64,000 nt of DNA, from NCBI GenBank assembly GCA_043803405.1, contig JAZDKB010000023.1:12863-76862 (forward strand), read 5' to 3'. The notes under the pieces are model-generated. The model saw only the letters and a program-made list of their open reading frames with translations. It was not told where the DNA came from and made no database searches. The translations under genes were made by a program, and so were the position numbers. The stretch comes from Spirochaetota bacterium (lineage in GTDB: Bacteria > Spirochaetota > UBA4802 > JAFGDQ01). Of the stretch, positions 27,182 to 64,000 are shown in pieces; position 1 is the first letter of the stretch; every line of letters starts with the position of its first letter.

Positions 27182-28819
27182 TCAGAATTTTTTTATCAGC
27201 AGCACCTGGTTGCCGGTATCATTGTATTTAATTTCGTTAAAGATATCTTTTGACATTAAAATGCCTCTTCCATGCTGGCTGTCGTTTGCATTTTCAAGAG
27301 ATACTTCCTTGTTTAACGCGCTTTTGTGATCAAATCCGTTTCCCTGATCGGCAATTTTGAATACAGCTTTATCCGGATCAATCTGGTATTCGATTACGAC
27401 TTTTTTATTCGCGATTACGGGATCGTTTCTCCGGTCTTCAATTAATTTGCGGTATGTATCGTTTATCAATGCTTCGCTTTTTTCCTCATACGTTATGCCA
27501 AGGTTCCCGTGCTCTATTGCGTTTAAAATCATTTCACGCAGTCCGAGACGTAAAAGCTGTATTTCCTGCGGCTCCATATATTTTTTTAAATGCTTTATCA
27601 TGTTATAGGTTACATCATCCACCAGGGTTAAATAATTTTCGATCTCAAATTTTTGCTTTTCCGAAATAAAATATTTTGACAGCGTATCTTCAATAAGGGG
27701 AGAGATGATGCCGTGGATTTCGTTTCTTCCTTCTATTTCAATAAATTCCATTTTTACGTTCATTTCCCTGGGTTCTGATGCAAAGGATGATGTAAACTGT
27801 GCAATAAAATTTACTGGCTTCATTTCTCTTAAGAAGTTTTCGAGTTTTTCTTTTATTAATAAATTGGAAGATGTCCTGCCGTTGGACCCCATGTTCAATA
27901 AACTTAAGAAGTTCAGCGATTTGACCTTCTCCTGGCTTATTTTTAAATGAGTGCGTATGGCTTTGTTTACAGTGATGAAATTCCAGTCTTCACTTAAGGA
28001 AAAAATAATATCATTCGAATTTTCTACTAAAAGCCTGTATTTTTTTTCCGAAAGGCTGATCTGTATATTTGCTTCATTAAGCAATTCCTCTGCCTTTATT
28101 CTTTCCAGAATTTCCGTTTTTAAATCCGAGTTGGCCTTTGTTAATTCGCTTGTCCTTTCCTGTATGCGTTTTTCCAGTTCCTTGTGAATCATTAATATTC
28201 TTTTTGCAAGGTAAGCTCCCATTAATATTACAGATAATGAAATTAAAATTAAAGAGAACAGAACAAGTGTAAAATACCGGTTATTTATGTATTTTATTTT
28301 ATCTCCGGCCGCGTTTTCTATTTTAATTACCAGTTCATCCATTTGCGAAAGGGCTGAATCGTTTTTTCCTTTGGATATCGACAGAACTTCCCGCTTATTT
28401 TTAAAATTCGAATCAACCAGCTTTTCAGTAAGAATCAGATATTCTAATGTAATTTCTTTATGCCGTGACCGAAATGTGTCTATATCGCCGGGTATGGACT
28501 GGAAATCGCTGCATAAAAGTTTAAGATTAAATAAAGCATCCTGCACTTTATCCGCAAAAACAGTAAAGGAATGATAATTCTTTTTGTATTCCGGGAAATC
28601 TTCACCCTGAAGCACCATAATAGTCCATAAATGAAACTGGTTTTGAAAATATATTTGCGACTCGCGTGCCAGGTTAACCGCTTCGATGTAATATGAAGTC
28701 TGTTTATAGGAATTTTTAAGAGTATAAAGTCCTGAAAGACCGCTTACGAGAAGCAGCAGCAGGAATACCGAAATGCCGGTAATTAATAATTTCGTCGTTA
28801 GTTTAGTTTTTGTTTCCAT
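27182..28819 (-). CDS. Membrane sensor with PAS and RsbW-like HATPase output domain
   Basis: Two TMs, ENSNDII PAS start, REMILNAIEHGN, DQGNGF, HGRGI. Confidence 0.85.
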   Translation of the reverse strand: METKTKLTTKLLITGISVFLLLLLVSGLSGLYTLKNSYKQTSYYIEAVNLARESQIYFQNQFHLWTIMVLQGEDFPEYKKNYHSFTVFADKVQDALFNLKLLCSDFQSIPGDIDTFRSRHKEITLEYLILTEKLVDSNFKNKREVLSISKGKNDSALSQMDELVIKIENAAGDKIKYINNRYFTLVLFSLILISLSVILMGAYLAKRILMIHKELEKRIQERTSELTKANSDLKTEILERIKAEELLNEANIQISLSEKKYRLLVENSNDIIFSLSEDWNFITVNKAIRTHLKISQEKVKSLNFLSLLNMGSNGRTSSNLLIKEKLENFLREMKPVNFIAQFTSSFASEPREMNVKMEFIEIEGRNEIHGIISPLIEDTLSKYFISEKQKFEIENYLTLVDDVTYNMIKHLKKYMEPQEIQLLRLGLREMILNAIEHGNLGITYEEKSEALINDTYRKLIEDRRNDPVIANKKVVIEYQIDPDKAVFKIADQGNGFDHKSALNKEVSLENANDSQHGRGILMSKDIFNEIKYNDTGNQVLLIKKF

Positions 28820-29041: not shown

Positions 29042-31303
29042 TTATTTTAAATGCCGGTTTAAAAGTTCGGAGAGTTCGCTTTTTCTGAACGGCTTGGTTA
29101 TGCTGTCTGTAAATCCGTATTCCACAGGTTGCGACATTACCGGATCTTCCGAATATCCGCTTGTCGCAAATACAGGCATCTCCGCGCCATTGCTGCGGAG
29201 TACGGCTATTGTTTCCAGTCCTCCCATTCCAGCGCTGTTTGTAAGATCAAGAAGCATTGCTTTTATATGTATATTATTTTTAACTGATGATAAATACTGA
29301 TCCAGTGTTTCATTCCCATTACTCGTTTTTATAACCATATATCCCATTTCTTTAAGCATTTCTTCAGTGACATCGCGCATGTTGTCTTTATCGTCCATAA
29401 TAATTAGTGTGCCGCTACCGCTGTGAACTGATCTGCTCCGCGATATAGAATCCGCCAGATTTCCGGCGGAAGCCGGAAGAAATATATGGAATGTTGTTCC
29501 ATGCCCGGGTTCGGATTCAACCCGGATGAAACCTTCGTGTTTTTGGATGATGGAATAGGACGTTGCAAGGCCAAGCCCTGTGCCTTCTTTTTTAGTAGTA
29601 AAAAACGGATCAAATATTTTTGGCAATATGTCGGCGGGTATACCTGTGCCGGTATCCGCAATTGATATTTTTATAAATCTGCAGTTATTGGTGTTGCTGC
29701 TTTTTTGCATCCGGATGAGTTCGTTTCTTTCAGTGTTTTTTGCAGTAATAGTAATTTTCCCCCTGCCGGGCATTGCCTGCTTTGCATTTATAAGTAAGTT
29801 ATTTATAACCTGGCCCAGTTGATTTTCGTCAAAATCGCATAGCCACAGATCTTCAGAAATATTTAGATCGCAGGAAACATTCGCGCCGCTTAAAGCGAAT
29901 TTAGAACATTCCATAAGAATGGATTTTAACTCGCCTGTTTTACGCACAGGTAATCCGCCTTTAGCAAATGTTAAAAGCTGATGCGTAAGGTCTTTTGCTT
30001 TATTAAAACTCTGGAGGGCAGTCTCGAGATATTCCTTATAATCTGCATCGCCAGGGCCGGCATCCTTTGAAAGTTCTATATAACCATAAATAACGCTCAG
30101 GAGGTTATTAAAGTCATGAGCTATGCCTCCGGCAAGTATACCGAGCGACTCCAGTTTGTCTGCTCGTTGCAGGTTTTCCTTTATAGCCTGCTTTTCAGTG
30201 ATATCACTGAAAACAAGCACTACGCCGATTGTTTTACTGTTCTTATCATTTATGGGCGCGCCGCTTTCAGTAATTACTTTTTCCGATCCGTCGCGCGATA
30301 TCAGAAGTGTGTGGTTTGATAGTTCAATAACATTGCCTGTGGAAAGAACGCGTTCTACCGGGTTCTGACCTGGTTTGCGGGTTAATTCATTTATAATGCG
30401 GAAAATATCAGCCAGGTCTTTGCCTTTTGCCTCGTTCAATGTCCATCCCGTCAGCTTTTCCGCGACTTTATTCATTATCATTATTTTGCCTAAAAGGTCT
30501 GTCGTAATAACTCCGTCGCCTATACTTCGGAGGGTAACAGCAAGAAGTTCCTTTTCCCCGGCAAGATTTTCCTCTGTCTTTATCCTTTCTGAAATTTCTT
30601 TTTTTAAATCCGCATTGGCCTTTGTTAATTCATTTGTTCTTTCTTTTATGCGGATTTCCAGTTGATCCTGTATCGTCAATATTTTCTTTGCAAAATATAA
30701 GCCCAATAGAATAGCGTATACAGAAAGAATTATAAGCATGGTAAGCGTCAGCGAAAAATAAAAATTATTAATGCGTTCTATTTCCTTATCAGCTGCGTCT
30801 TCTATTTTTGCAACTATGTAATCCATTTCCGAGACTGCAATTTCGTCTTTTCCTTTTGATAACCCGATAATTTCTTTTTTTGTTTTAAAATTGGATTCAA
30901 CAAGTTTTTCGATAAGGGACATATAGTCCATGGTGATTTGTTTATGCGTAAGGCGCAATTCCGCTATCTCATCCGGTATATCTTTAAAATTACTGCACAA
31001 TAGCTTAAGATTAAACAGTGTATCCTGAACTTTATCCGAAAATCGTGTAAACGAATGATAATTAGCCTGGTATTCTGAAAAATTTTCTCCCTGGAAAATA
31101 ATATTATTCCATGAATATAATTGATTTTGGAAATATACCTGGGATTCCCGCGCGAGATTGACAGCTTGAATGTAATGAACTGTTTCCGTATACGAATTTT
31201 TTATTATGTAAAGCCCTATAAAACCGCTTAGTAAAATAAGAATTAAAAAAGTCGAAATTACAGAAATTAATAATTTTTTAGTACGTTTGGTTATCGGTCT
31301 CAT
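29042..31303 (-). CDS. Hybrid sensor histidine kinase (TM sensor, PAS, HisKA, HATPase, REC)
   Basis: IAHDFNN, NAKQA, DTGTGI, FFTTK, GTGLGL, C-terminal receiver. Confidence 0.93.
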
Positions 31304-46604: not shown

Positions 46605-46734
46605 AATTCATTCCAGTATTTTTGAAATATATTTTGGGACACATCAGTAATTAATAAAGTTTTCCTTTGGACAAAAGACAAACAGCTTTCAATTATATAT
46701 TTCGAAATAATTACAAATAAAAATATTTTTTAAA

Positions 46735-46833
46735 ATGCAATTTATCGGCGTTCTGCCGGAAAGTGAAATTGTTGACGCTCAAAGAGAAGTTTGCAGTATC
46801 ATCGGTAAACTTATAGAGGAGGATGTGATTTAA
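46735..46833 (+). pseudogene. 32-codon fragment resembling a FliG C-terminal domain
   Basis: MQFIGVLPESEIVDAQREVCSIIGKLIEEDVI*; upstream frames are broken. Confidence 0.3.
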
Positions 46834-46970: not shown

Positions 46971-47015
46971 GTTAGGTTCCTGTTTCATAACATACAGTCG
47001 AATAATATGTTAGGA
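46971..47015 (+). repeat. Collapsed attC-like site, remnant of the array repeat 3' end
   Basis: CAGTCGAATAATATGTTAGG matches the repeat end; TCATAACATA / TATGTTAGGA hairpin; extra GTTAGGT at 46971. Confidence 0.55.
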
Positions 47016-47044
47016 TCGAAAAATTTACTTGATTTTTATTTCAT

Positions 47045-47075
47045 TGACGTATTTATTTAACATAAATATACGTCA
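47045..47075. promoter_or_regulatory. Probable TA operator inverted repeat
   Basis: TGACGTAT-N15-ATACGTCA overlapping TTGACG, just before the AGGAG RBS. Confidence 0.55.
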
Positions 47076-47085
47076 GGAGTTACAA

Positions 47086-47331
47086 ATGAATACTAAATTA
47101 ACTTTAAGATTAAGCAATGAATTAATTAATGAGGCAAAGAATTATGCTAAAAAAGAAGGCAAATCTTTATCTCAACTTGTTAGCGACTTTTTTGTTGCAA
47201 TAAGTTCGAAAAAAGTTTCTACTCAAAAACCTTATTTAAAGCCAAAAACTTCTAAATTATATGGATCACTAAAAGGTAAATTAGTTTCGAAAGAAGACTA
47301 CAATAAGCATATTGAGAAAAAATATCTATGA
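47086..47331 (+). CDS. RHH antitoxin (DUF6364-like)
   Basis: MNTKLTLRL..ELI..AK.YAK..GKSLSQLV; RBS supports the 47086 start. Confidence 0.85.
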   Translation: MNTKLTLRLSNELINEAKNYAKKEGKSLSQLVSDFFVAISSKKVSTQKPYLKPKTSKLYGSLKGKLVSKEDYNKHIEKKYL

Positions 47332-47750
47332 TGAATATCCTTTTTGATATCAATGTCATTCTAGATTCTTTATTAGACAGAAAACCTTATGGACATATTG
47401 CTGCATTATTAATTAATGCAGTTGAGGAATCAATAATAAATGGTTTTTTATCTGCTGATTCAGTTACTACTCTTTTTTATTTAATTCAAAAAGTAAAGAA
47501 TAAGAACCAGGCTAAAGAAACAATTAAATTATTATTAGATATTTTCGAAATTTCTCCAGTCAATCGTAATATTCTGCAAGAAGCTATTAACATAGATTTC
47601 AATGATTTTGAAGATGCAGTTGTTTATCAATCTGCTTTTTTAAGCAATTGCAATGGAATCGTAACAAGTAATACTAAAGATTTTAAAAAATCAAAAATTC
47701 ACATTTACAATCCAAAAGAATTATTAAACGCAATAACATATAAAAGTTAA
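47328..47750 (+). CDS. PIN-domain toxin
   Basis: ILFDINVILD, DFEDAV, IVT.N.KDF. Confidence 0.88.
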   Translation: MMNILFDINVILDSLLDRKPYGHIAALLINAVEESIINGFLSADSVTTLFYLIQKVKNKNQAKETIKLLLDIFEISPVNRNILQEAINIDFNDFEDAVVYQSAFLSNCNGIVTSNTKDFKKSKIHIYNPKELLNAITYKS

Positions 47751-47771
47751 TTCAATTATACTTATTAAACA

Positions 47772-48167
47772 AGAATCAAACTTACAATTAAGTGTGCTTC
47801 TCCACGCCGTTTTTTTGCAGCAGTTTGATTTGGCAGTCGAGATGTATTCGGTTTGTTGACAGAGTCGGCGTCGCGGGTCGAATATTACAAAATATTCTGT
47901 TGATATTAACAAGCAAAGCAAATCCGATTATCAATTAAACAAGCACACGAATATTTTAAAGCCGCAGAACATGTAACTGTTGCTACAAAACCTCTTTTAA
48001 TCCTGATATAATTTCTGCATTTGCTTTCCTGTGGCACACATTTACTAAAGTTAAAGAACAGTAAAAGCTGAGTAATTTTATAAATTATTCTTGAAATACT
48101 GGAGATAAGATTTCCTATATAGGAAAAACATTTCTGACTGCGTATGCAGTCTAATAATATGTTAGGC
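47772..48167 (+). repeat. Array repeat copy 1 (~396 bp)
   Basis: Aligns by eye with copies 2-4; ends GACTGCGTATGCAGTCTAATAATATGTTAGGC. Confidence 0.95.
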
Positions 48168-48229
48168 AATGAAAGTTACAGTAAAAAAACATTCTTTACA
48201 TCAATTTCACTACTACAAAGACATCTTCA

Positions 48230-48811
48230 ATGCTATTCAATGAATATATAAATTTAATTGGTGATACTTCAATTTCTGGATGGACTATAACAATTGCATA
48301 TTTTTCTACGGCATTCCTATGTTTGAGTGTCATTCAAATCGAGAAAAAATTTTTTTTGGGTATCAAAGATATAAAGAGTTATTATATATGGCTAGCATTG
48401 TTCATCATGATGTTTCTCCTTGGGTTAAACAAGCAGCTGGATTTTCAAACATTATTTAGACTTATTATCCGTTATGTAGTAAAAATTGATTCCTCGTATA
48501 TAATATGGCGTTGGTTTTTCCAGAAACTAGTTGCCGGATTGGCTGGGCTATTCGGATTGTGTAGTATAGTAGGATTACTGTGGTGGTTAAGAGGGAGAGT
48601 TAAGGAATTTAAACTGGTAATTCTTGGTCTGGTATTTTTATTTACGTTTCTGGTGATTCGTATTGTTTCCATTAATCATGTTGGCCATCTTCTAGGCAAC
48701 TGGAAGATAAACTACCCTTTCTGGATAAATCATATTGTTGAGCTAGGAGGAATTGTGCTGATCGGAGCAGAAGCGGTAATTCGTTTAAACTCCATGAGGC
48801 AAAAAACCTGA
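48230..48811 (+). CDS. Hypothetical multipass membrane protein (cargo)
   Basis: IGD...GW.ITIAY, LGLNKQLDFQ, VELGG; about 5 TMs. Confidence 0.8.
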   Translation: MLFNEYINLIGDTSISGWTITIAYFSTAFLCLSVIQIEKKFFLGIKDIKSYYIWLALFIMMFLLGLNKQLDFQTLFRLIIRYVVKIDSSYIIWRWFFQKLVAGLAGLFGLCSIVGLLWWLRGRVKEFKLVILGLVFLFTFLVIRIVSINHVGHLLGNWKINYPFWINHIVELGGIVLIGAEAVIRLNSMRQKT

Positions 48812-48900
48812 GATATACCTTTTATCTATTGGTGTTAGATGAGATAAGTGGATGACAGAATACTAATGAATAAACTATAAAGAAAAATACAGCATGCGTT

Positions 48901-48929
48901 GTTTAGTAGTTCGTAAAATGCTACTAAAC
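48901..48929. terminator. Hairpin after the cargo gene
   Basis: GTTTAGTAG / CTACTAAAC. Confidence 0.4.
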
Positions 48930-48933
48930 GAGC

Positions 48934-49338
48934 GCCTAATAAGTGCCAAACTTACAATTAAGTCTGCTGCTCCCCGCCGTATTTGTGGCAATTTAATTTG
49001 GCAGTCGAGATTTAATTGATTTGCTAAAAGAGTCTGCATCGTGGGTCGAATATTTCAAAATATTCTGTTGATATTAACAAACAAGCAAAGCAAATCCGAT
49101 TATCAATTAAACAAGCACACGAATATTTTAAAGCCGCAGAACATGTAACTGCTGCTATAAAACCTCTTTTAATCCTGATACAATTTTTGCATTTGCCTTT
49201 CTGTGGCACTGTTCATTAAAGTTAAGGAATAGTAAAGGCTGAATAATTTCATAAATTATTCTTGAAATACTGGAGATAAGATTTTTTATATAGGAAAAAC
49301 ATATCTGACTGCGTATGCAGTCTAATAATATGTTAGGT
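48934..49338 (+). repeat. Array repeat copy 2 (~405 bp including GCCTAAT)
   Basis: Begins GCCTAAT, ends GTTAGGT; aligns with the other copies. Confidence 0.95.
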
Positions 49339-49460
49339 ATTATATAGACTGGCGAGAATCATTTTGCATATTGATATATTTTGGAAATGTATGGCATGAT
49401 CCTTAGTGAACGCTATAAAAACATAAAAAAATAAATTTATTTCTCCACGAAATTAATTCA

Positions 49461-50237
49461 ATGATGACATTATTTTTTTTCCATGGTTACGCCTTATTCA
49501 TAAGCAATGCCATTGAACCGGATTTCCATCAGCATCATCTGATGGAACTGTTTATTTCACTTGATAAACCTTTAACAATAAAAATGAGTAAGGAATTTTA
49601 TAAAGCAAAGAATTTTATTATTGAGTCTGACGAACTACACCGAATAGAAAGCAACAGTACTGCCTATGCAGTAATTCTATTGGATAGTGAGTCAAAAATT
49701 GCCCAGCAATTCAGGAAAATATTTCTTTATAAAAAGGAAATCTCCATTCTTTCGGATTCTTTGTTGTCATTATACCTGGAAGATATTAAGATGCTGTTCA
49801 ACAATGATTGCAAAATAGAAAGAGCAAAAATTATCTGTGATAATATTATAGCCCATATTATTGGTGAAGAATCTATTGAAATAAGTATTATTGATCATAG
49901 AATTGAAAAAATTCTTAACATGTTCACTTTGTTTCCTGATAAAAAAGTTAAAATAAAAGAGCTTTCCGAAAGAGTTGATTTATCTGAAAGCCGTTTAATT
50001 CATCTCTTTACCAAACAAGTCGGAATACCTATCCGCCATTATCTGCTTTGGCTTAGACTAATAGATGCAATAAAGCTGATCGTAAAAGGCAGCTCTTTTA
50101 CTGATGCGGCATATGAAGCTGGATTCTCTGATTCTGCACATTTAAGCAGGACTTTTAAAAAAATGTTTGGATTAAAATTGCTGGAAGTATTTAAAAATTA
50201 TAAAGATAGCGGATTCGTTCAAGTCATAACAGAATAG
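49461..50237 (+). CDS. AraC-family transcriptional regulator
   Basis: LSESRLIHLF, AAYEAGFSDSAHLSRTFKKMFG. Confidence 0.92.
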   Translation: MMTLFFFHGYALFISNAIEPDFHQHHLMELFISLDKPLTIKMSKEFYKAKNFIIESDELHRIESNSTAYAVILLDSESKIAQQFRKIFLYKKEISILSDSLLSLYLEDIKMLFNNDCKIERAKIICDNIIAHIIGEESIEISIIDHRIEKILNMFTLFPDKKVKIKELSERVDLSESRLIHLFTKQVGIPIRHYLLWLRLIDAIKLIVKGSSFTDAAYEAGFSDSAHLSRTFKKMFGLKLLEVFKNYKDSGFVQVITE

Positions 50238-50277
50238 TTTTATTATAATTATCCTGTATAGAGACAGGAGGAAATAT

Positions 50278-50886
50278 ATGAAGCTTAATCTGTTCGAATA
50301 CTGTATGATGAATAATCCCTTGAGAGCATTTATTCAAACAAAATATGAATTCCCGATACTGCAAAGAATGGTACAAACTAAAAATCTGAAAAAAGTATTG
50401 GAAATCGGATGCGGGAATGGCCATGGAACGACTTTAATAAAAAAACTTTTTAATCCTGAACACATTGTTGCAATTGATTTAGATGAAAGGATGATTAATA
50501 AAGCAGTAAAAAGAGAATTGTCTAATGTAACTTTTAAAGTTATGGATGCTTCAAAACTCGATTTTGAAGATAATGAATTTGATGCTGTTTTTGATTTTGG
50601 AATCATCCATCATATCCCTAATTGGAAAGATTGTATCTTTGAATTGAAAAGGGTATTAAAAAATAATAGTGAAATAATTCTTGAAGATTTATCAAAGGAT
50701 ACTTTTAATACTATTTTTGGCAAATTTTTGAAGGTTATTTCCGATCATCCTTATGCCGACATGTACTCAACAGATGAATTTATACATTGTTTAAAACGAT
50801 CTGGTTTCAAGCTTTTGCATTACAAGGAGTCATATCCATTAAAAACAATTAAATTTTTTTCCTTGAGTGCGGTTGCGAATAAATGA
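50278..50886 (+). CDS. Class I SAM-dependent methyltransferase
   Basis: VLEIGCGNG, AIDLD, DAS.LDF, IIHHI. Confidence 0.92.
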   Translation: MKLNLFEYCMMNNPLRAFIQTKYEFPILQRMVQTKNLKKVLEIGCGNGHGTTLIKKLFNPEHIVAIDLDERMINKAVKRELSNVTFKVMDASKLDFEDNEFDAVFDFGIIHHIPNWKDCIFELKRVLKNNSEIILEDLSKDTFNTIFGKFLKVISDHPYADMYSTDEFIHCLKRSGFKLLHYKESYPLKTIKFFSLSAVANK

Positions 50887-50929
50887 TATAAATATTTTTT
50901 GTTCTTGAAAGAAAGTGCTGCTAAAAAGT

Positions 50930-51214
50930 GCCTAATATTCTGTTGATATTTACAAACAAGCAAAGCAAATTCGATTATCAATTAAACAAAGCACAAGAAT
51001 ATTTTAAAGCCGCAGAACATGTAACTGCTGCTACAAAACCTCTTTTAATCCTGATACAATTTCTGCATTTGCCTTTCTGTGGCACACATTCATTAAAGTT
51101 AAAAACTAGAAAAGGCTGAATAATTTCATAAATTATTCTTGAAATACTGGAGATATCTTTTCCTATATAGGAAAAGATATCTGACTGCGTATGCAGGCTA
51201 ATAATATATTAAGC
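50930..51214 (+). repeat. Array repeat copy 3 (5'-truncated, ~285 bp)
   Basis: GCCTAA joined to TATTCTGTTGATAT; ends ATTAAGC; contains a perfect 32-bp palindrome. Confidence 0.93.
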
Positions 51215-51399
51215 TCAATTAAATTGGAGAATGATATATATGAAATTAAACTCCGGGAAGAAGATGAACAATTAAAAAACAGGGAATATCTCATAACAAA
51301 GAAAGAAGCCAGTGATTAAGTATGATGAAAACTAAAAAAAGAATTGAAGTTTTTCTTTTTAAGAATAAGAATATATAAAAAAGTAAAAGGAATTGTTTT

Positions 51400-51612
51400 A
51401 TGAAATATCAGGATATCGGATCAAAAATTGAAAGATTGCCGGAACAAGTGATTCCGGAAATTAATGATTTTATAGATTATTTATTGAATAAATATGGCGA
51501 GAAAAAATCCCGGAAAGAAAAGTTTAAATTTGATTGGGAAGGTGGACTGGCAAATTTAAAGAATGAATACACTTCGGTAGAATTACAGCACAAAGCGTCA
51601 GAGTGGCGATAA
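51400..51612 (+). CDS. DUF2281-like antitoxin
   Basis: LPEQ...EI.DFIDYL, FDWEGGL, SVELQHKA.EWR. Confidence 0.85.
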   Translation: MKYQDIGSKIERLPEQVIPEINDFIDYLLNKYGEKKSRKEKFKFDWEGGLANLKNEYTSVELQHKASEWR

Positions 51613-51989
51613 TGTATTTAATCGATACGAACATATTTTTAGAAATACTTCTGAAGCAGGATAAAAGTAAAGATTGTAAAACATTTCTTGATAAGAATAT
51701 AGGCAAACTGAATATTTCCGATTTTTCCCTTCATTCAATCGGCGTTATTCTTTTAAGGAATAACAACGAAAATATTTTCAATAAATTTATTTTGGATATT
51801 TTGCCGAAATTAAATCTTCTTAGTCTCCCCAAGCCTGAGTATAAAGAAATCATAAACATAAAAAAGAAAAACAAGCTGGATTTTGACGATTCCTACCAGT
51901 ACAGTATCTGCATGAATTATAAATTAACTCTAATTACGTTAGATCAGGATTTTAAAAAAGTAAAAGGTATTGCAGTTCAGTTTGTATAA
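51612..51989 (+). CDS. PIN-domain toxin
   Basis: MYLIDTNIFLE, LDFDDSYQY, TLDQDF; TAATG coupling with the antitoxin. Confidence 0.88.
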   Translation: MYLIDTNIFLEILLKQDKSKDCKTFLDKNIGKLNISDFSLHSIGVILLRNNNENIFNKFILDILPKLNLLSLPKPEYKEIINIKKKNKLDFDDSYQYSICMNYKLTLITLDQDFKKVKGIAVQFV

Positions 51990-52250
51990 AATCTCCTTTA
52001 GAATGTCTGTCAATTAACTCTGCCCGGTTGTGCCGGTTATCTTGTTTGACAATACTGTCAATGTAAGCGGGTTTATTAATGAATATTTTTTGTTGATTAT
52101 TGTTATATTGTGCATATTATATGCTTTACTATTAATGCAGCGAATTTTTTAGAATTAATTTCGATTTTAGTAATCTTTTACTCGAAACTAAAGTTTAATT
52201 ATTTTAAATTAGTTTGTTCTGGCTTTATTAGTTTTATTAAACTAATTAAC

Positions 52251-52645
52251 AGAATCAAACATGCAATTAAATCTGCTGCTCCCCGCCGTCTTTTTGCAGC
52301 AGTTTGATTGTGCAGTCGGGATTTAATTGATTTGCTAAAAGAGTCTGCATCGCGCGTCGAATATTTCAAAATATTCTGTTGATATTAACAAGCAAAGTAA
52401 ATCCGATTATCAATTTAACAAGCACACGAATATTTTAAAGCTGCAGAACATGTAACTGTTGCTGCAAAACCTCTTTTAATCCTGATACAATTTCTGCATT
52501 TGCCTTCCTATGGCACACATTCATTAAAGTTAAAAACTAGAAAAGGCTGAATAATTTCATAAATTATTCTTGAAATACTGGAGATAAGATTTCCTATATA
52601 GGAAAAGATATCTGACTGCGTATGCAGTCTAATAATATGCTAGGC
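52251..52645 (+). repeat. Array repeat copy 4 (~395 bp)
   Basis: Aligns with copies 1-3; ends GCTAGGC. Confidence 0.95.
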
Positions 52646-52863
52646 TGGCAATCCCAAAAAAATAGCATATTCTCGAATATGATTATTCCTTAAGATTAAA
52701 ACTCTACTAAAATTTAATTTTTATAATTCTTTCTATATCAGAGATATATTTATAATTTTTATTGCTTTTATTTTTTTGTTGACGATATTTAAACTGTGGT
52801 ATATATTTACTACATAGTAGTAAAATACCACAAATATAAACATATTTAAAAAAGGAGTAAGTT

Positions 52864-53229
52864 ATGAAATCTTTCGGGTTTTTTGTGAAAGATGCAAGAG
52901 TAGAACGAGGAATTACATTACGTGAGTTTTGTAGGATCAATAAATTGGATCCAAGTAATTGGAGCAAAATCGAACGGGGGGTTCTCCCTCCACCAAAAAG
53001 CAGGGAGGTGCTAAATGAAATCGCAAAGTCATTAAAACTGAAGACAGATTCTGAAGAGTATAATACTCTTTTCGATTTAGCTGCAATCAGCTACATTCCA
53101 AAAGAATTATTAACCAATCAGGAAGCATTAGATAAACTTCCAGTATTCTTCAGGACTTTACGTGGCGAGAAGCCAACAAGAAGTGAGCTAGAACAAATAT
53201 TAAAAATTATAAAAGATGATCATTCCTAA
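52864..53229 (+). CDS. XRE-family HTH regulator
   Basis: FG.FVK.AR...ITLREF...DPSNWSKIERG; RBS AAGGAG. Confidence 0.88.
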   Translation: MKSFGFFVKDARVERGITLREFCRINKLDPSNWSKIERGVLPPPKSREVLNEIAKSLKLKTDSEEYNTLFDLAAISYIPKELLTNQEALDKLPVFFRTLRGEKPTRSELEQILKIIKDDHS

Positions 53230-53243
53230 ACAGGAGGTAGTTA

Positions 53244-53864
53244 TTGTACAAGATTAAACCAAGAAAATTAAATTACCAATATATTAGAGAACAAGCAGAA
53301 AAATTCAGGCAAGAATACGTAGTCCCTACGAAAAAAATACCCGTCCCAATTATTGATATTGTAGAAATACAATTAAAAATAACACCTATCCCTATTCCAG
53401 GTCTCCTTCGCCTAATAGATGTCGATGGTTTTTTATCTAACGATTTAGAAAGCATTTATATTGATCAAAGTATTTATGAAGATTACAGGTATGAAAATAG
53501 ACTGAGATTTACTTATGCTCATGAGGTGGGTCATTTAATCCTGCACAAACAAGAAATACAACAGTGTAAATTTCGGAATGCCGATGAATGGATATCTTTT
53601 AGAGAAGATATGGACGAAGAAGATTTGTTTTTCTTTGAACAACAAGCATATGAATTTGCTGGAAGATTACTTGTACCTATAGATATTTTAACAAATGAAA
53701 TATCTTCCATGAAAGATAAAATTGATTTATTTCGTTCGAATTTTGATCATACAAATGGCGATGAAATGATAAAAGAAGCAATTTCGAGAATAATTTGCAA
53801 AAAATTTAATGTTTCTGAAAGCGTAATTTCAAAACGTATAAGAAACGAAAAAATTATAATTTAA
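53244..53864 (+). CDS. ImmA/IrrE-family metallopeptidase
   Basis: RLRFTYAHEVGH, EQQA.EFAGRLLVP. Confidence 0.9.
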   Translation: MYKIKPRKLNYQYIREQAEKFRQEYVVPTKKIPVPIIDIVEIQLKITPIPIPGLLRLIDVDGFLSNDLESIYIDQSIYEDYRYENRLRFTYAHEVGHLILHKQEIQQCKFRNADEWISFREDMDEEDLFFFEQQAYEFAGRLLVPIDILTNEISSMKDKIDLFRSNFDHTNGDEMIKEAISRIICKKFNVSESVISKRIRNEKIII

Positions 53865-53879
53865 TTAAGGGAGACGTAA

Positions 53880-54017
53880 ATGCCTAAAAAAGTTACAAGT
53901 AGCAAAGTTGCGAAAACTGCATCCAAAATTTTAAGAGATGGTAGAACTAGTAAAAGTTCGAAGTCTGTGGCTGCGAGTGCTTTATCTCAAAGAGAAAAAA
54001 GCAGAAGAAAGAAATAA
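53880..54017 (+). CDS. 45-aa basic small protein (below the ORF-track cutoff)
   Basis: MPKKVTSSKVAKTASKILRDGRTSKSSKSVAASALSQREKSRRKK*; RBS AAGGGAG. Confidence 0.7.
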   Translation: MPKKVTSSKVAKTASKILRDGRTSKSSKSVAASALSQREKSRRKK

Positions 54018-54041
54018 GTTTTTGTTACAAAAATTATATTA

Positions 54042-54091
54042 TCTAAAAAACATCTTAATCATTCTAACTATTCGGTTAAGATGTTTTTAGA
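54042..54091 (+). terminator. Hairpin after the HTH-ImmA-small ORF operon
   Basis: TCTAAAAAACATCTTAA / TTAAGATGTTTTTAGA followed by a T run. Confidence 0.55.
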
Positions 54092-54338
54092 TTTTTAAAT
54101 GATTTTCAGCACACAATTGAGCTTGTAAATGGAGATAATAAATAAATGCAAATGCCATCTACTATTCACCCCAAGACTTTCATTATAAATGGTTATGGTT
54201 TCAAAGTTATATCATATGCAAAACTTACAGATAGACAAGCTACGGAATGTTGTTGCCAGTACACGCAAGGCCGGTTGTACATATCGAAAGGCTTGAAATG
54301 GAAATATAGTAATTACTTACACGTAAATATTTATTTTT

Positions 54339-57300
54339 TTATAAAGTGCCTTCTATTACTTCGATTTCTTTCTTATCAAGTCCATAGAGTTTATAAACCA
54401 GTTCATCAATTTTTTTATCCGTATATTCAATGCGGTTTTTAAGCTGTTCCTGTTCTTGAGGGAGTTTACTATTCTGTAATTCTTTATTAAGTGAAAGCAT
54501 AGATTCAACTAGTTTAACAATATCATTATGAATTGACTTTTCAATTGGATTAGAAAAATCAATTGTCTTTATCGGAAATGGAGATAAATAATCAGTAGTA
54601 AATGTATAGTATCCACCACGTAAGACATACCCTGTTTTTTTTATGAAATACCACATTATTTTTGAATTAAATAATGCTAACCAAAAATATTTATTTTCTT
54701 CTCTGTCTTCATTAGGAATAAGGCTATATACTTTAGTATTATGGTAAATTCCTGCAGGGCAAATAGTCATATTACAACCTAAACTTGCATATGGTGTTAT
54801 AATTCTTTCTTGTTCAAATATATTCATGTCTCGGCTACGATGGCAAGAATACCAATATTTAGAATTTGTTTTTTGTCTTTCTCTTATTTCGAATTGTTCT
54901 TTTTTAAATTCATGCAAATATTTATAACCCTTAGGAAATAATGTTGCTAATTCATTCTCTTCAAGAATAACGGTTTTTTCTTTCTCAACTTTATATGGAT
55001 AAATAATATAATTATCATATACTGGTTCCTGGAACCTTTTTACATTATTACCCATCGCAAGAGGTTTTACTAATTTTTTCTCAATTATTATTTCTTTTTG
55101 TATTTTGTCAGAAAATAATTTAATGTACTTATTATCAATATCATCAATAAACCCCAGAATATGTACTTCATCAATACCTGATTGTATACCAACCATAATA
55201 GTTCCAAAAATATCTTTTAAAGTATATGGCATATTTATTTTATCGAGAATACTTTTTGAACGCGATGAAGTTAATATCCAAGCCGATGTGGTAAAATTAT
55301 TTAAATTATAAGTAGCGAAATCATTATCGGTAAGTTTATATAATTGATTCGGTAATTCAGTTTTATAATCTTCTGTGAACTCATAGTAATTGAATTCTTC
55401 ATTTTTTTCTTTTGTTAAAAATAATAATCCTGTATAAGTTGAAGCTTGTTCAAAAACTAGATTATGACCTAAATTGATTAATTTCTTTATGGCTTTATTA
55501 CTTAATAAAAATTTTCTTATCCCAGAACCAAAATCAGAATTAATGAATTTATGCGGACAGATATATCCGAGTAAACCTTCATTTTTTATAAGTTTAAAAC
55601 CTTTTTCAATAAATAATAGATACAAATCATATCTTTTAACTGCACTTGTATATTTCTGTTCAAAATATTCTAACTGGTTATTATAATTCTCTTGGAGTCC
55701 CTGAATTCTTAAATACGGCGGATTCCCGATCACAACATCAAATCCGCCCTGCCTGAATACTTCAGGAAATGATTGCTCCCAGTTAAAAGGCTTTATCTTC
55801 TTATCTTCATTTGGCTCAAAATCAAGTTGCCCCTCATAAAAATCAAAATCAATCAGCGAATTCCCGCATTTTATGTTATCTTCAAGATTCGGCAAAACCC
55901 TTTCTTTAAACAAAGTCATCTGCTCATTAACAGAAGCTTCCGTTTCTCCCTCAAGACACTTTAAAAGCAAGCTAAGCTTAGTGACCTCAACAGCCTGCGT
56001 GTCAATGTCTACGCCGAATATATTATTCGTAAGGATCCTTTTCTTCTCTGCTGTGGTTAATTTCCCGTCAGGTGTTAAAGGGCTTTTTTTATTTTTCTTA
56101 TTATCGTTATTAGCAATGTAGTAATAAAGATGGTAATTCAACAAATACTGATAAGCCCCAAGAAGAAAAGAACCGCTTCCGCACGCAGGGTCAAGAATCC
56201 TGATTTTAGATATTTGTTCCGGCGTTTTGTTTTCAATCAGCTTGCCGACGGTGTTCTTAACTATATATTCAACAATGTATTGAGGCGTATAGTAAACACC
56301 TCCTGCCTTGCGTACTTCAGGTTTAACTTCAACCTTTGCATGGTGTCCGCTTGTGAGACGTATTACGCTGCCAAGAAATTGCTCATAAGAATTTCCAAGA
56401 ATCTCAACAGGAATAACGGAAAATTCATACGGACTTTCCGGATAGTACATTTCCGAAATCATGGACTTCAGTATTTTATCGTCTATGGCAATCGAGTTGG
56501 ATAATTTATCTTTATTGAAGTCAAAAAGGCCGGAATTATATTTGTCATCTGCATACTGGAAATACCGGAAAAGCTTTTCGTAAATTGAGCCTGTATTTAT
56601 TAAATTTTTCAAATAGCCGTAAGGTTCAATCTTTCTGTCTTCACAGATACGAAGAAAAATGAGCCTGTCAATAGTCTGCTGCACAGTAAAATTTATCTCA
56701 TCCTCCTTGAGTTTGTCATTACGTATAGCAATATTGAGAGCAAGCGATTTGCGCCACTCTTCCATTGATTTCAGGAATTCACTGTCAACGGATGACGTCC
56801 CTTTTTTATTTAAATCTGATACTGCAAATTTATCAAATCTGCCCTTTAAAATATTATCTTTTGCAAACGTGTCGTATAGAAAATCAAGTTCCCGGATATA
56901 TTCCTTATAAGTAATGTATTTTATCCTGGCAACGGAGGCTTTATCTGTCAGGTTTGGCTTTTTTGTGCAGTCGTAAATCGCGAATTCGTGGAAATCGGTA
57001 ATTATGGAGATAGGCAGTTTCGCGCTCCAGCCGTATCTGCGTATCTGGTAAGCGGGAGCAGCAGATTCTTTTATTTCCACGCTTGGTTTTTTCGCTTCAA
57101 CGTAAAACTTTTTTTGCCCGTATATAGTAAAACAATAATCAGGCGCTTTTATGCTTTCATCTATTCTTATTTTATCCTCATGAATTACTTCGCGGTAAGC
57201 TTCAGCAAGGCTTTGTTCATTATCAATGTCCCAGCCCAGCGCTTTAAAAAACGGGTCAATGAAATCCCTGCGGGTTTTAGTCTCGTTATATTCGGAGTTT

Positions 57301-57374
57301 GTGTACGACTCTTTATGTTCTTCAAAACGATTTACTAATTCAGTTATTTTCTCTAATGCAATCTCTTTGCTCAT
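54339..57374 (-). CDS. Type IIG restriction-modification enzyme (nuclease + N6-adenine MTase + TRD)
   Basis: PDY...VEAKK nuclease motif, GVYYTP, DPACGSG, GNPPY; 1011 aa. Confidence 0.92.
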   Translation of the reverse strand: MSKEIALEKITELVNRFEEHKESYTNSEYNETKTRRDFIDPFFKALGWDIDNEQSLAEAYREVIHEDKIRIDESIKAPDYCFTIYGQKKFYVEAKKPSVEIKESAAPAYQIRRYGWSAKLPISIITDFHEFAIYDCTKKPNLTDKASVARIKYITYKEYIRELDFLYDTFAKDNILKGRFDKFAVSDLNKKGTSSVDSEFLKSMEEWRKSLALNIAIRNDKLKEDEINFTVQQTIDRLIFLRICEDRKIEPYGYLKNLINTGSIYEKLFRYFQYADDKYNSGLFDFNKDKLSNSIAIDDKILKSMISEMYYPESPYEFSVIPVEILGNSYEQFLGSVIRLTSGHHAKVEVKPEVRKAGGVYYTPQYIVEYIVKNTVGKLIENKTPEQISKIRILDPACGSGSFLLGAYQYLLNYHLYYYIANNDNKKNKKSPLTPDGKLTTAEKKRILTNNIFGVDIDTQAVEVTKLSLLLKCLEGETEASVNEQMTLFKERVLPNLEDNIKCGNSLIDFDFYEGQLDFEPNEDKKIKPFNWEQSFPEVFRQGGFDVVIGNPPYLRIQGLQENYNNQLEYFEQKYTSAVKRYDLYLLFIEKGFKLIKNEGLLGYICPHKFINSDFGSGIRKFLLSNKAIKKLINLGHNLVFEQASTYTGLLFLTKEKNEEFNYYEFTEDYKTELPNQLYKLTDNDFATYNLNNFTTSAWILTSSRSKSILDKINMPYTLKDIFGTIMVGIQSGIDEVHILGFIDDIDNKYIKLFSDKIQKEIIIEKKLVKPLAMGNNVKRFQEPVYDNYIIYPYKVEKEKTVILEENELATLFPKGYKYLHEFKKEQFEIRERQKTNSKYWYSCHRSRDMNIFEQERIITPYASLGCNMTICPAGIYHNTKVYSLIPNEDREENKYFWLALFNSKIMWYFIKKTGYVLRGGYYTFTTDYLSPFPIKTIDFSNPIEKSIHNDIVKLVESMLSLNKELQNSKLPQEQEQLKNRIEYTDKKIDELVYKLYGLDKKEIEVIEGTL

Positions 57375-57504
57375 AGTATGTCCGTTTCGATTGACAATAT
57401 AGTTCCTGTATTTGTATTGTTTGTTTTAACTAAACTCAATAAAAGGAAATAAAGCGTTGTTTAATTTAAAAAAGCAATGAAAATAATTTTCTTTAAACGC
57501 CTTT

Positions 57505-57581
57505 ATTGTTTCCCCTTCCAAGCCGGTGCCCCCTTTGGGGGATAGGGGGTTAAATGCAAAAGGCTTAACTTAATGACATTG
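57505..57581 (-). mobile_element. 77-bp IS-end/MITE-like segment, inverted copy of 63848-63924
   Basis: 76/77 identical to the reverse complement of 63848-63924; terminus CTTAACTTAATGACATTG. Confidence 0.8.
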
Positions 57582-63800: not shown

Positions 63801-63924
63801 GGCTGTCTCATTCTAAAAGCAAGCTCGTTGAACTCATCCCCCTATCCCAATGTCATTAAGTTAAGGCTTTTGCATTTAACCCCCTATCCCCCAAAGGGGG
63901 CACCGGCTTGGAAGGGGAAACAAT
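63801..63924 (+). mobile_element. Nested IS-end/REP/MITE composite
   Basis: GGCTGTCTCA end (16/17 inverted match to 43926-43942), REP start at 63831, then the CAATGTCATTAAGTTAAG segment at 63848. Confidence 0.7.
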
Positions 63925-64000
63925 ATCTTTTGATATTAAATATAGATTATGTGCTAATCCATTGTGAAAATGAGAATTTATTCAATAAAAAATTTTTATG

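Follow-up and report, generated by a model that had tools for sequence, protein, structure and literature searches.

The described structures closest to the locus treated here are the delta-attI cassettes of integrons belonging to classes 1 and 2 (PMC12901181, which cites Partridge 2000 and 2009 on them). According to that paper, attI1 consists of an L box, 5 bp and an R box, a layout also seen in the core of the repeat described below; IntI1 excises and inserts delta-attI cassettes, one of which carries 244 nt of attI2, and it fully excises attI1-aadB-attI1. A crossover between an L box and R'' has been proposed as their origin in work cited there, and the Discussion of the paper calls this origin largely unknown. 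Recombination between two attI sites is efficient (PMC4792948). The stretch analysed here, hereafter called the window, comprises 64,000 nucleotides of a Spirochaetota bacterium (GCA_043803405.1, contig JAZDKB010000023.1, positions 12,863 to 76,862), in which gene units of different content alternate with copies of a long repeat. This locus is probably an array of delta-attI-type integron cassettes that lacks an integrase and has partly decayed.

In a delta-attI cassette the cargo runs from TTRRRY to R'' and is followed by a partial attI in place of a full attC. This arrangement was found at the locus, clearly for cargo 2, cargo 3 and a collapsed cassette of 21 bp and with a degenerate R'' for cargo 1 and cargo 4. 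In the junctions of this array, extra DNA sits between R'' and the attI piece.

Anatomy and position of the repeat

Each full copy of the repeat is a chimera of a truncated attC (~105 bp), a fragment of a yaaC gene (~125 bp), an unassigned middle (~105 bp) and then an attI end, a composition of which we are highly confident. The initial annotation of the window had described four co-oriented copies, and blastn confirmed them at the same positions as direct repeats with pairwise identities of 88-93 %. Copy 3 lacks the initial ~125 bp. The ends of copies 1-4, given earlier as GTTAGGC, GTTAGGT, ATTAAGC and GCTAGGC, were found as such in the sequence. Copy 2 lies at 48934..49338, copy 3 at 50930..51214 and copy 4 at 52244..52645, and the parts of copy 1 are given below; all array features are on the plus strand.

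The source assembly consists of 3.98 Mb in 54 contigs, cited here as C1, C9 etc., other genomes being cited as G001 etc. In blastn searches of all 54 contigs, full-length matches to the repeat were confined to this locus, and the other matches comprised 94 nt at 72 % identity, in an attC on C45, and stretches of 25 and 34 nt. The array region has a GC content of 0.28-0.33, compared with 0.39 for the genome. In five relatives the histidine kinase gene which here is the upstream neighbour of the array is followed by other genes, without an attC match; in a sixth the contig ends at this locus, so the comparison rests on five. An Rfam search of the repeat gave three matches, all far below the gathering scores. 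Minus-strand open reading frames (ORFs) within the copies were not conserved from copy to copy and were taken as chance.

The draft state of the genome, with its 54 contigs, would leave room for an assembly artefact, and a repeat of this kind could be a miniature inverted-repeat transposable element (MITE). However, genome-wide blastn bore out that the repeat is not a dispersed MITE, since it occurs at one locus and in one orientation, and terminal inverted repeats, target duplications and dispersal in both orientations were not found in the locus, its flanks or the genome. The 7-12 % divergence between copies, together with their unique flanks, would be unlike collapse or expansion errors. 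The probability of a MITE or an artefact appears negligible.

A truncated attC on the left

attC sites of one family, ~130 bp long, recur on C1, C2, C9, C10, C21, C39 and C45 (profile searches). A rule-based attC scan found two sites of this family among 35 rows, plus many unrelated hairpins, and profiles were used instead. A profile of five sites, the copies being excluded, matched copy 2 at positions 11-104, copy 4 at 3-104 and copy 1 at 11-105 of ~132 (nhmmer E-values 1e-6, 2e-5 and 6e-4). A 13-site profile of 131 positions matched copy 2 at 2-104 (E 3e-7 within the locus), copy 4 at 3-94 and copy 1, weakly, at 5-105 (E 0.024 within the locus). The matches are collinear from R'' and end ~27 positions early, before L' and R'. 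In copy 1 the truncated attC, which lacks L' and R', occupies 47764..47880, in copy 2 it extends from the R'' GCCTAAT (48934-48940) to 49048, and in copy 4 it extends to 52359. In the alignment copies 1, 2 and 4 leave the attC sequence at the identical base, while intact sites run 16 nt further to the GTT, and the normal attC sites on C45 and C9 continue differently beyond this breakpoint. In copy 3 the attC half is absent and the R'' GCCTAAT is joined directly to the yaaC fragment.

The hairpin at the start of the copies had earlier been called attC-like, a view that folding did not support. Folded end to end, none of six left-end segments paired R'' with R', compared with five of the six intact attC sites of the genome, although folding z-scores did not separate the two groups. 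The opening hairpin has a stem of 8 bp in copies 1 and 4, without R box pairing. No window segment had RYYYAAC and GTTRRRY 57-141 bp apart with bottom-strand pairing, the repeat as a whole being ~400 bp long, nor was pairing of L'' and L' with extrahelical bases seen, the L' and R' of the family being missing. Two R''-like heptamers lie within the first ~20 nt of the repeat, and the cassette's own R'' could be either. GTTGATA in the repeat was rejected as an R' site, as it lies within the yaaC frame and shows no pairing. The array has no complete attC, so an attC-based search would probably miss or under-call it.

A yaaC fragment in the middle

In a six-frame search, the genome had only four matches to PF14175, and these were the four copies (E 0.01-0.12, below the cut-off; 0.0105 for copy 1). 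The peptide of copy 2 alone gave an E-value of 9e-4. Its relatives among 1.84 billion representative proteins were three proteins, 49-62 % identical over residues ~40-85, and all three, as well as a 406-amino-acid protein of G015, belong to PF14175 (YaaC) above the cut-off. The match stops just short of the YYG motif. The fragment occupies 47881..48002 in copy 1, 49049-49174 in copy 2 and 52360-52481 in copy 4; it is frameshifted in copies 1, 3 and 4, in copy 1 by a 4-bp loss according to the alignment, and in frame without a start codon in copy 2. Judged by its sequence, this part of the repeat is a dead yaaC gene fragment. For its source gene, tblastn and word searches gave no match in the own genome and one match among 300 other genomes of the phylum, and a search for homologous proteins returned nothing.

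The AT-rich stretch of ~105 bp that follows (48003..48110 in copy 1) had no meaningful match in the own genome or the fetched loci and may be the distal region of an attI. Its assignment as a second piece of attC was rejected, as the attC profile gives no match.

An attI-like right end

The last 25 nt of copy 1 matched in the genome copies 2 and 4 (1 mismatch), copy 3 (3), the short piece r0 at the left of the array (4) and the intI-linked site on C9 (4), followed by C19:188728 (5) and C39:22141 (6). The intI-linked sites of G001, G002 and G005 align with the C9 site. An attI matrix was trained from 61 loci with a small intI-linked ORF, of which about ten were dropped by eye as too short or lacking a site and three were added; 47 sites were kept from 53 foreign regions. 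Among 1.21 million positions, copies 1, 2, 4 and 3 and r0 ranked 1, 2, 5, 8 and 11, the C39 and C19 sites 3 and 4, and the C9 attI 6. Eight attC ends scored -6 to 10.9 bits on this matrix. In an unseeded, noisy control, for which sites were chosen solely by their distance from an upstream palindrome (22 of 24 regions, fixed width, several picks visibly wrong), copies 1 and 2 and r0 scored 10-12 bits (r0 11.7), like the C9 attI (12.2) and within the leave-one-out range.

The L box, spacer of ~5 bp and R box GTTRRRY of an attI are present, intact in copies 1 and 2 and r0, and the GTT of the R box is changed by one base in copies 3 (ATT) and 4 (GCT, 52639-52645). In copy 1 the attI end occupies 48111..48167, with the L box GTCTAAT at 48149-48155, the R box GTTAGGC at 48161-48167 and the crossover between G and TT at 48161 (attI matrix); in copy 2 the intact GTTAGGT lies at 49332-49338, and copy 4 likewise continues through the middle into an attI end. 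Accessory repeats are found upstream of the core. A palindrome of 16 bp was learned from 37 foreign regions, where its most frequent distance ahead of the crossover is 49-52 bp; copies 1 (48111-48126), 3 and 4 have it at -50 with scores of 8-9 bits (background 0.0005), and it is decayed in copy 2 and absent in r0. The C9 attI has four palindromes upstream of its core.

The piece r0 (46992..47015), directly 3' of an R'', is a short delta-attI with its L box at 46997-47003, a spacer of 5 bp and its R box at 47009-47015. It had been annotated as a remnant of the repeat, and the relation to the copy ends stands, although it is a short attI piece. The closing hairpin reported for the copies has a real stem of 6 bp (z -4 to -7), but this is too short for an attC and sits inside the attI-like end. 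Taken by sequence, the right end is attI-like and not attC-like.

On a matrix of attC ends the window sites scored -11 to +2 bits, compared with 15-32 bits for nine of 11 real attC ends. This bears on the earlier suggestion of a decayed cluster of attC sites lacking an integron integrase (CALIN), in which one gene-less attC cassette would have been inserted between all cargos. Gene-less cassettes exist, and the repeat has hairpins at both ends and GTTRRRY ends, but if the cassettes had inserted independently, each copy would be preceded by a complete attC, whereas copies 1, 2 and 4 share one truncation; moreover there is no end-to-end fold, and the GTT after the attC half falls inside the yaaC frame. 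We consider such a CALIN very improbable. What holds of the suggestion is an array without an adjoining integrase, there being no intI nearby; the anatomy of the repeat does not fit, and in place of the at least two attC sites of a CALIN only truncated pieces were found with the 13-site profile.

Integrase, resident integron and distribution of the repeat

The description of the array as integrase-less holds for the window, in which the best tblastn match to IntI had an E-value of 0.10, and for its contig, which encodes five tyrosine recombinases, none of them IntI, but not for the genome. An intact IntI is encoded at C9:269679-270623 (TIGR02249, 453 bits, cut-off 265), followed on the same strand by a 127-amino-acid ORF, an AT-rich stretch, GTTAGGC (attI) and an attC array. 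IntI is present in five of six other genomes of the family and in one of 74 others.

The ORF at C9:270634-271017 (127 amino acids) has no Pfam or NCBIfam family, and versions of 110-127 amino acids precede attI in ~60 loci of many phyla, with three to five copies of the 16-bp palindrome after the ORF; its product may bind these palindromes. In some of these loci intI lies on either strand, and in others none lies within 2.2 kb. At C9:276948-279255, an insert of ~2.2 kb splits the resident integron's first attC. It carries a reverse-transcriptase-like ORF of 483 amino acids on the cassette strand and, as read by eye, is probably a group II intron; contig C2 begins with a related piece. IIC-attC introns lie in the orientation opposite to this same-strand insert. 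Identical contig-end sequence follows R'' at C9:282123-282264 and C10:1-140, so that a single array fragmented at a repeat may underlie those on C9, C10, C2 and C45. A non-coding stretch of 150 bp with inverted ends of 12 bp follows an attC at C45:934-1075 and is possibly a small insertion element or a gene-less cassette. At C19:188700-189490 (plus strand) and C39:21245-22165 (minus strand), attI-like cores without an upstream palindrome each head a lone cassette of two toxin-antitoxin-like genes, identified by eye, which ends in a decayed attC. In G002 two integron integrase genes lie back to back (C33:33360-35958).

The attI pattern, with three mismatches allowed, had no match in the six family genomes, although two of them, G001 and G002, contain a comparable site that includes an indel. 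Matches to the repeat in G003, within a coding region, and in G051 were taken as chance.

The initial annotation had also offered an undescribed long recombination or gene-capture element, which would use an enzyme of its own. The unusual length of the repeat, the 105 bp without assignment and the lack of an Rfam match would agree with this. Three of the four segments, however, trace to known integron or gene parts (attC on the left, yaaC in the middle, attI on the right), the yaaC piece is frameshifted in three of four copies, the contig has no integron recombinase and the repeat is absent from the searched genomes, which makes such an element extremely improbable.

Cargo and edges of the array

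The five cargo units were confirmed by Pfam searches to be unrelated and co-oriented, as annotated, with one ORF added. Cargo 1 (47086..47750) consists of a DUF6364 antitoxin and a PIN_3 toxin (Pfam E 2e-19 and 3e-19). Cargo 2 (48230..48811) encodes a hydrophobic protein of 193 amino acids without a Pfam or NCBIfam family; its 13 homologs are unnamed or hypothetical, and one weak match in metagenomes looks like chance. Cargo 3 (49461..50886) encodes an AraC regulator and a class I S-adenosylmethionine methyltransferase (Pfam), cargo 4 (51400..51989) a DUF2281 antitoxin and a PIN toxin (Pfam E 3e-16 and 3e-15), and cargo 5 (52864..54017) a helix-turn-helix protein and an IrrE/ImmA-like metallopeptidase (Peptidase_M78, Pfam), together with the added ORF (53880-54017), whose basic product of 45 amino acids is rich in lysine and serine and has no Pfam or NCBIfam family.

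Complementarity between cassette start and end, claimed earlier for cargos 2 and 3, amounted to six and five of seven positions, respectively, and to four in cargo 4, four in cargo 5 and three to four in cargo 1; three intact C9 cassettes had 7, 7 and 6 of 7.

At the left edge, 46971..46991 comprises the leftmost GTTAGGT and the collapsed cassette of 21 bp, which ends in the R''-like TCATAAC (complementarity 5/7). This GTTAGGT is not attI-like (rank 4444 on the attI matrix) and is therefore possibly a chromosomal secondary site. Further left, 46642..46736 is the 3'-end remnant of a PIN-type toxin gene, 82 % identical over 95 nt to the ORF end at C3:54894-54988, an ORF which we take to be a PIN toxin from its sequence read by eye, without a family scan; the remnant is probably a further decayed cassette. 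At the right, R''-like and R'-like heptamers stand 6 bp apart in a hairpin at 54062..54081, which has an attI score of 1.0, is not an attI, and is either a collapsed attC or a terminator. An internal piece of another attC of the family (positions 68-109 of the 131-position model; E 3.5e-4 within the locus and 0.12 across the genome) marks the right edge at 54229..54270.

Beyond the array, a fused restriction-modification protein of 1011 amino acids (Eco57I-like; window 54339-57374, minus strand) converges on its right end. An inverted pair of 78 nt, 99 % complementary (window 57504-57581 and 63848-63925), belongs to a dispersed repeat family, for which blastn gave 16 matches in the genome, and is, by the checks made, not a composite transposon. 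A direct repeat of two copies, 75-80 % alike (window 28085-28242 and 30569-30726), occurs nowhere else in the genome.

History and propagation of the array

Several observations weigh against the locus being an array of delta-attI-type cassettes. The top ranks on the attI matrix depend on a model seeded with a window-shaped pattern, and in the unseeded control 28 genome positions reached at least 14 bits and copies 3 and 4 only 3.8 and 7.0. An intI gene lay within 2.2 kb at 24 of the 40 training sites checked (14 on the same strand, 10 on the opposite one). The C9 attI lacks the strong closing hairpin, and upstream of the core the copies differ from that site; they probably derive from an integron other than that of C9, and because of this upstream sequence the C9 IntI may not use them. 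About 105 bp of each full copy has no assignment. The search for the repeat in the genome and in relatives that had been proposed with the initial annotation found it at this locus, and full-length in none of 60 other genomes, and exact patterns of the attI end, yaaC core and attC half gave no match in genome and metagenome contig collections. The four homologs of the methyltransferase lie outside cassettes, and searches elsewhere revealed none of the cargos in a canonical attC cassette. Finally, were direct attI pairs to excise as readily as those of PMC12901181, instability of cargo 2 would be expected.

The identity between copies differs by segment, being 81-86 % in the attC half, 91-98 % in yaaC, 87-96 % in the middle and 87-97 % in the core. 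In the 5' part the informative columns group copies 1 and 4 against 2 and 3 (five columns, three events), in the 3' part copies 1 and 2 against 3 and 4 (five columns), and the third grouping occurs in neither part. These few events are a sign that the copies may have recombined among themselves. In a comparison bearing on whether the three attC halves stem from different donor alleles, copies 2 and 4 were nearest to the C45 site (63 and 61; copy 1, 45) and copy 1 was just slightly nearer to the first C9 site (37, compared with 28 and 29).

The same anatomy could have a passive history, in which homologous recombination of the host amplified one unit of cargo and junction in tandem, the cargos were exchanged bit by bit and the attI ends are non-functional remains. 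The mosaic copies, the GTT core broken in two of four copies and the attI upstream sequence unlike that of the resident integron are in agreement with this, as is the lack of promoter enrichment in a check for the Pc cassette promoter, with 32 sigma-70 matches and 43.7 expected. On the other hand, the 31-bp core is 97 % identical in two of the three pairs among copies 1, 2 and 4, and wholly unrelated cargos start exactly at the R box, with complementarity of 5-6/7 in cargos 2 and 3. Since unrelated cargos begin there and show such complementarity, IntI-type insertion would have taken place at each copy at least once, and a purely passive history seems unlikely.

As the breakpoint between attC and yaaC is common to three copies, the chimera would have arisen once, by deletions which joined the attC of a cassette to an adjacent yaaC gene and to an attI region. 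Through the attI end of this chimera, ordinary attC cassettes would have entered by the action of IntI in trans. The attC of such a newcomer would then cross over with the homologous attC half of the upstream chimera, in a RecA-type event or by IntI at R'', and free a circle of cargo plus chimera, which could re-insert at another copy by recombination of attI with attI, so that every round would add one cargo followed by the same junction. Entry at the attI end, swap of the attC half and re-insertion between attI sites form the simplest route given the single breakpoint and the cargo starts at the R box, and we lean slightly towards it as the way in which the array was propagated. The array may now be stabilised by its two toxin-antitoxin cargos and by copies 3 and 4 having lost their GTT core, with r0, copy 1 and copy 2 possibly still substrates.

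A more far-reaching and tentative idea, which we rather doubt, is that the junction acts as a self-propagating converter, in which incoming ordinary cassettes can shed their attC and depart carrying a junction copy instead. The array would then grow by adding one attI entry point after another, all of them used in trans by an integrase located far away. If true, this would, together with the orphan sites on C19 and C39, mean attI-based building and spreading of arrays, unseen by attC surveys.

Comparison with known systems

In the CALIN (Cury et al. 2016, PMC4889954) and the attG sites and single attC sites lacking an integron integrase (SALIN; bioRxiv 2022.09.11.507474), cassettes likewise occur without a neighbouring intI and with IntI elsewhere. 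The locus of the array being empty in five relatives is a further likeness. Unlike a CALIN, the present array has no complete attC. That arrays can lack every complete attC matters for counts obtained with attC models.

The integrons in which attI lies downstream of intI plus a small ORF (C9, G001, G002, G005) resemble the array in the attI core, the palindrome at -50 and the attC family. They differ from it in that no second attI-like site of at least 17 bits was found in 133 kb downstream of foreign attI sites (16 loci, not all of this being cassette array).

The likeness is closest to the delta-attI cassettes of class 1 and 2 integrons, in which, according to PMC12901181, a partial attI replaces attC after R''. 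The piece r0 corresponds to a short form (~18 nt) and the copies to a long form, comparable with the 244-nt attI2 piece of that paper, where two class 1 integrons have more than one such site per array. In contrast to the clinical cases, the array lies in an environmental chromosome, without an adjoining intI, all its internal junctions are of the hybrid type, and the junction adds a truncated attC and a yaaC fragment and has itself been copied four times. Its attI also belongs to the type that follows a small conserved ORF, unlike attI1 and attI2. In the mostly open literature searched, no array was found that lacks an integrase and has one hybrid attI junction between all of its units; Supplementary Table S1 of PMC12901181 may hold closer cases.

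The finding concerns one genome and a partly decayed array. It places the delta-attI type on the chromosome of an environmental bacterium, where four or five such cassettes follow one another with the same long hybrid junction, and the yaaC fossil marks all junctions as descendants of one event, which makes the route by which attC is traded for attI directly testable. Hybrid junctions of this kind may enable a single distant enzyme to insert or take out genes at several places. The locus resembles rare junctions of clinical integrons, and what is new is a row of integrase-less delta-attI cassettes on a shared hybrid junction.

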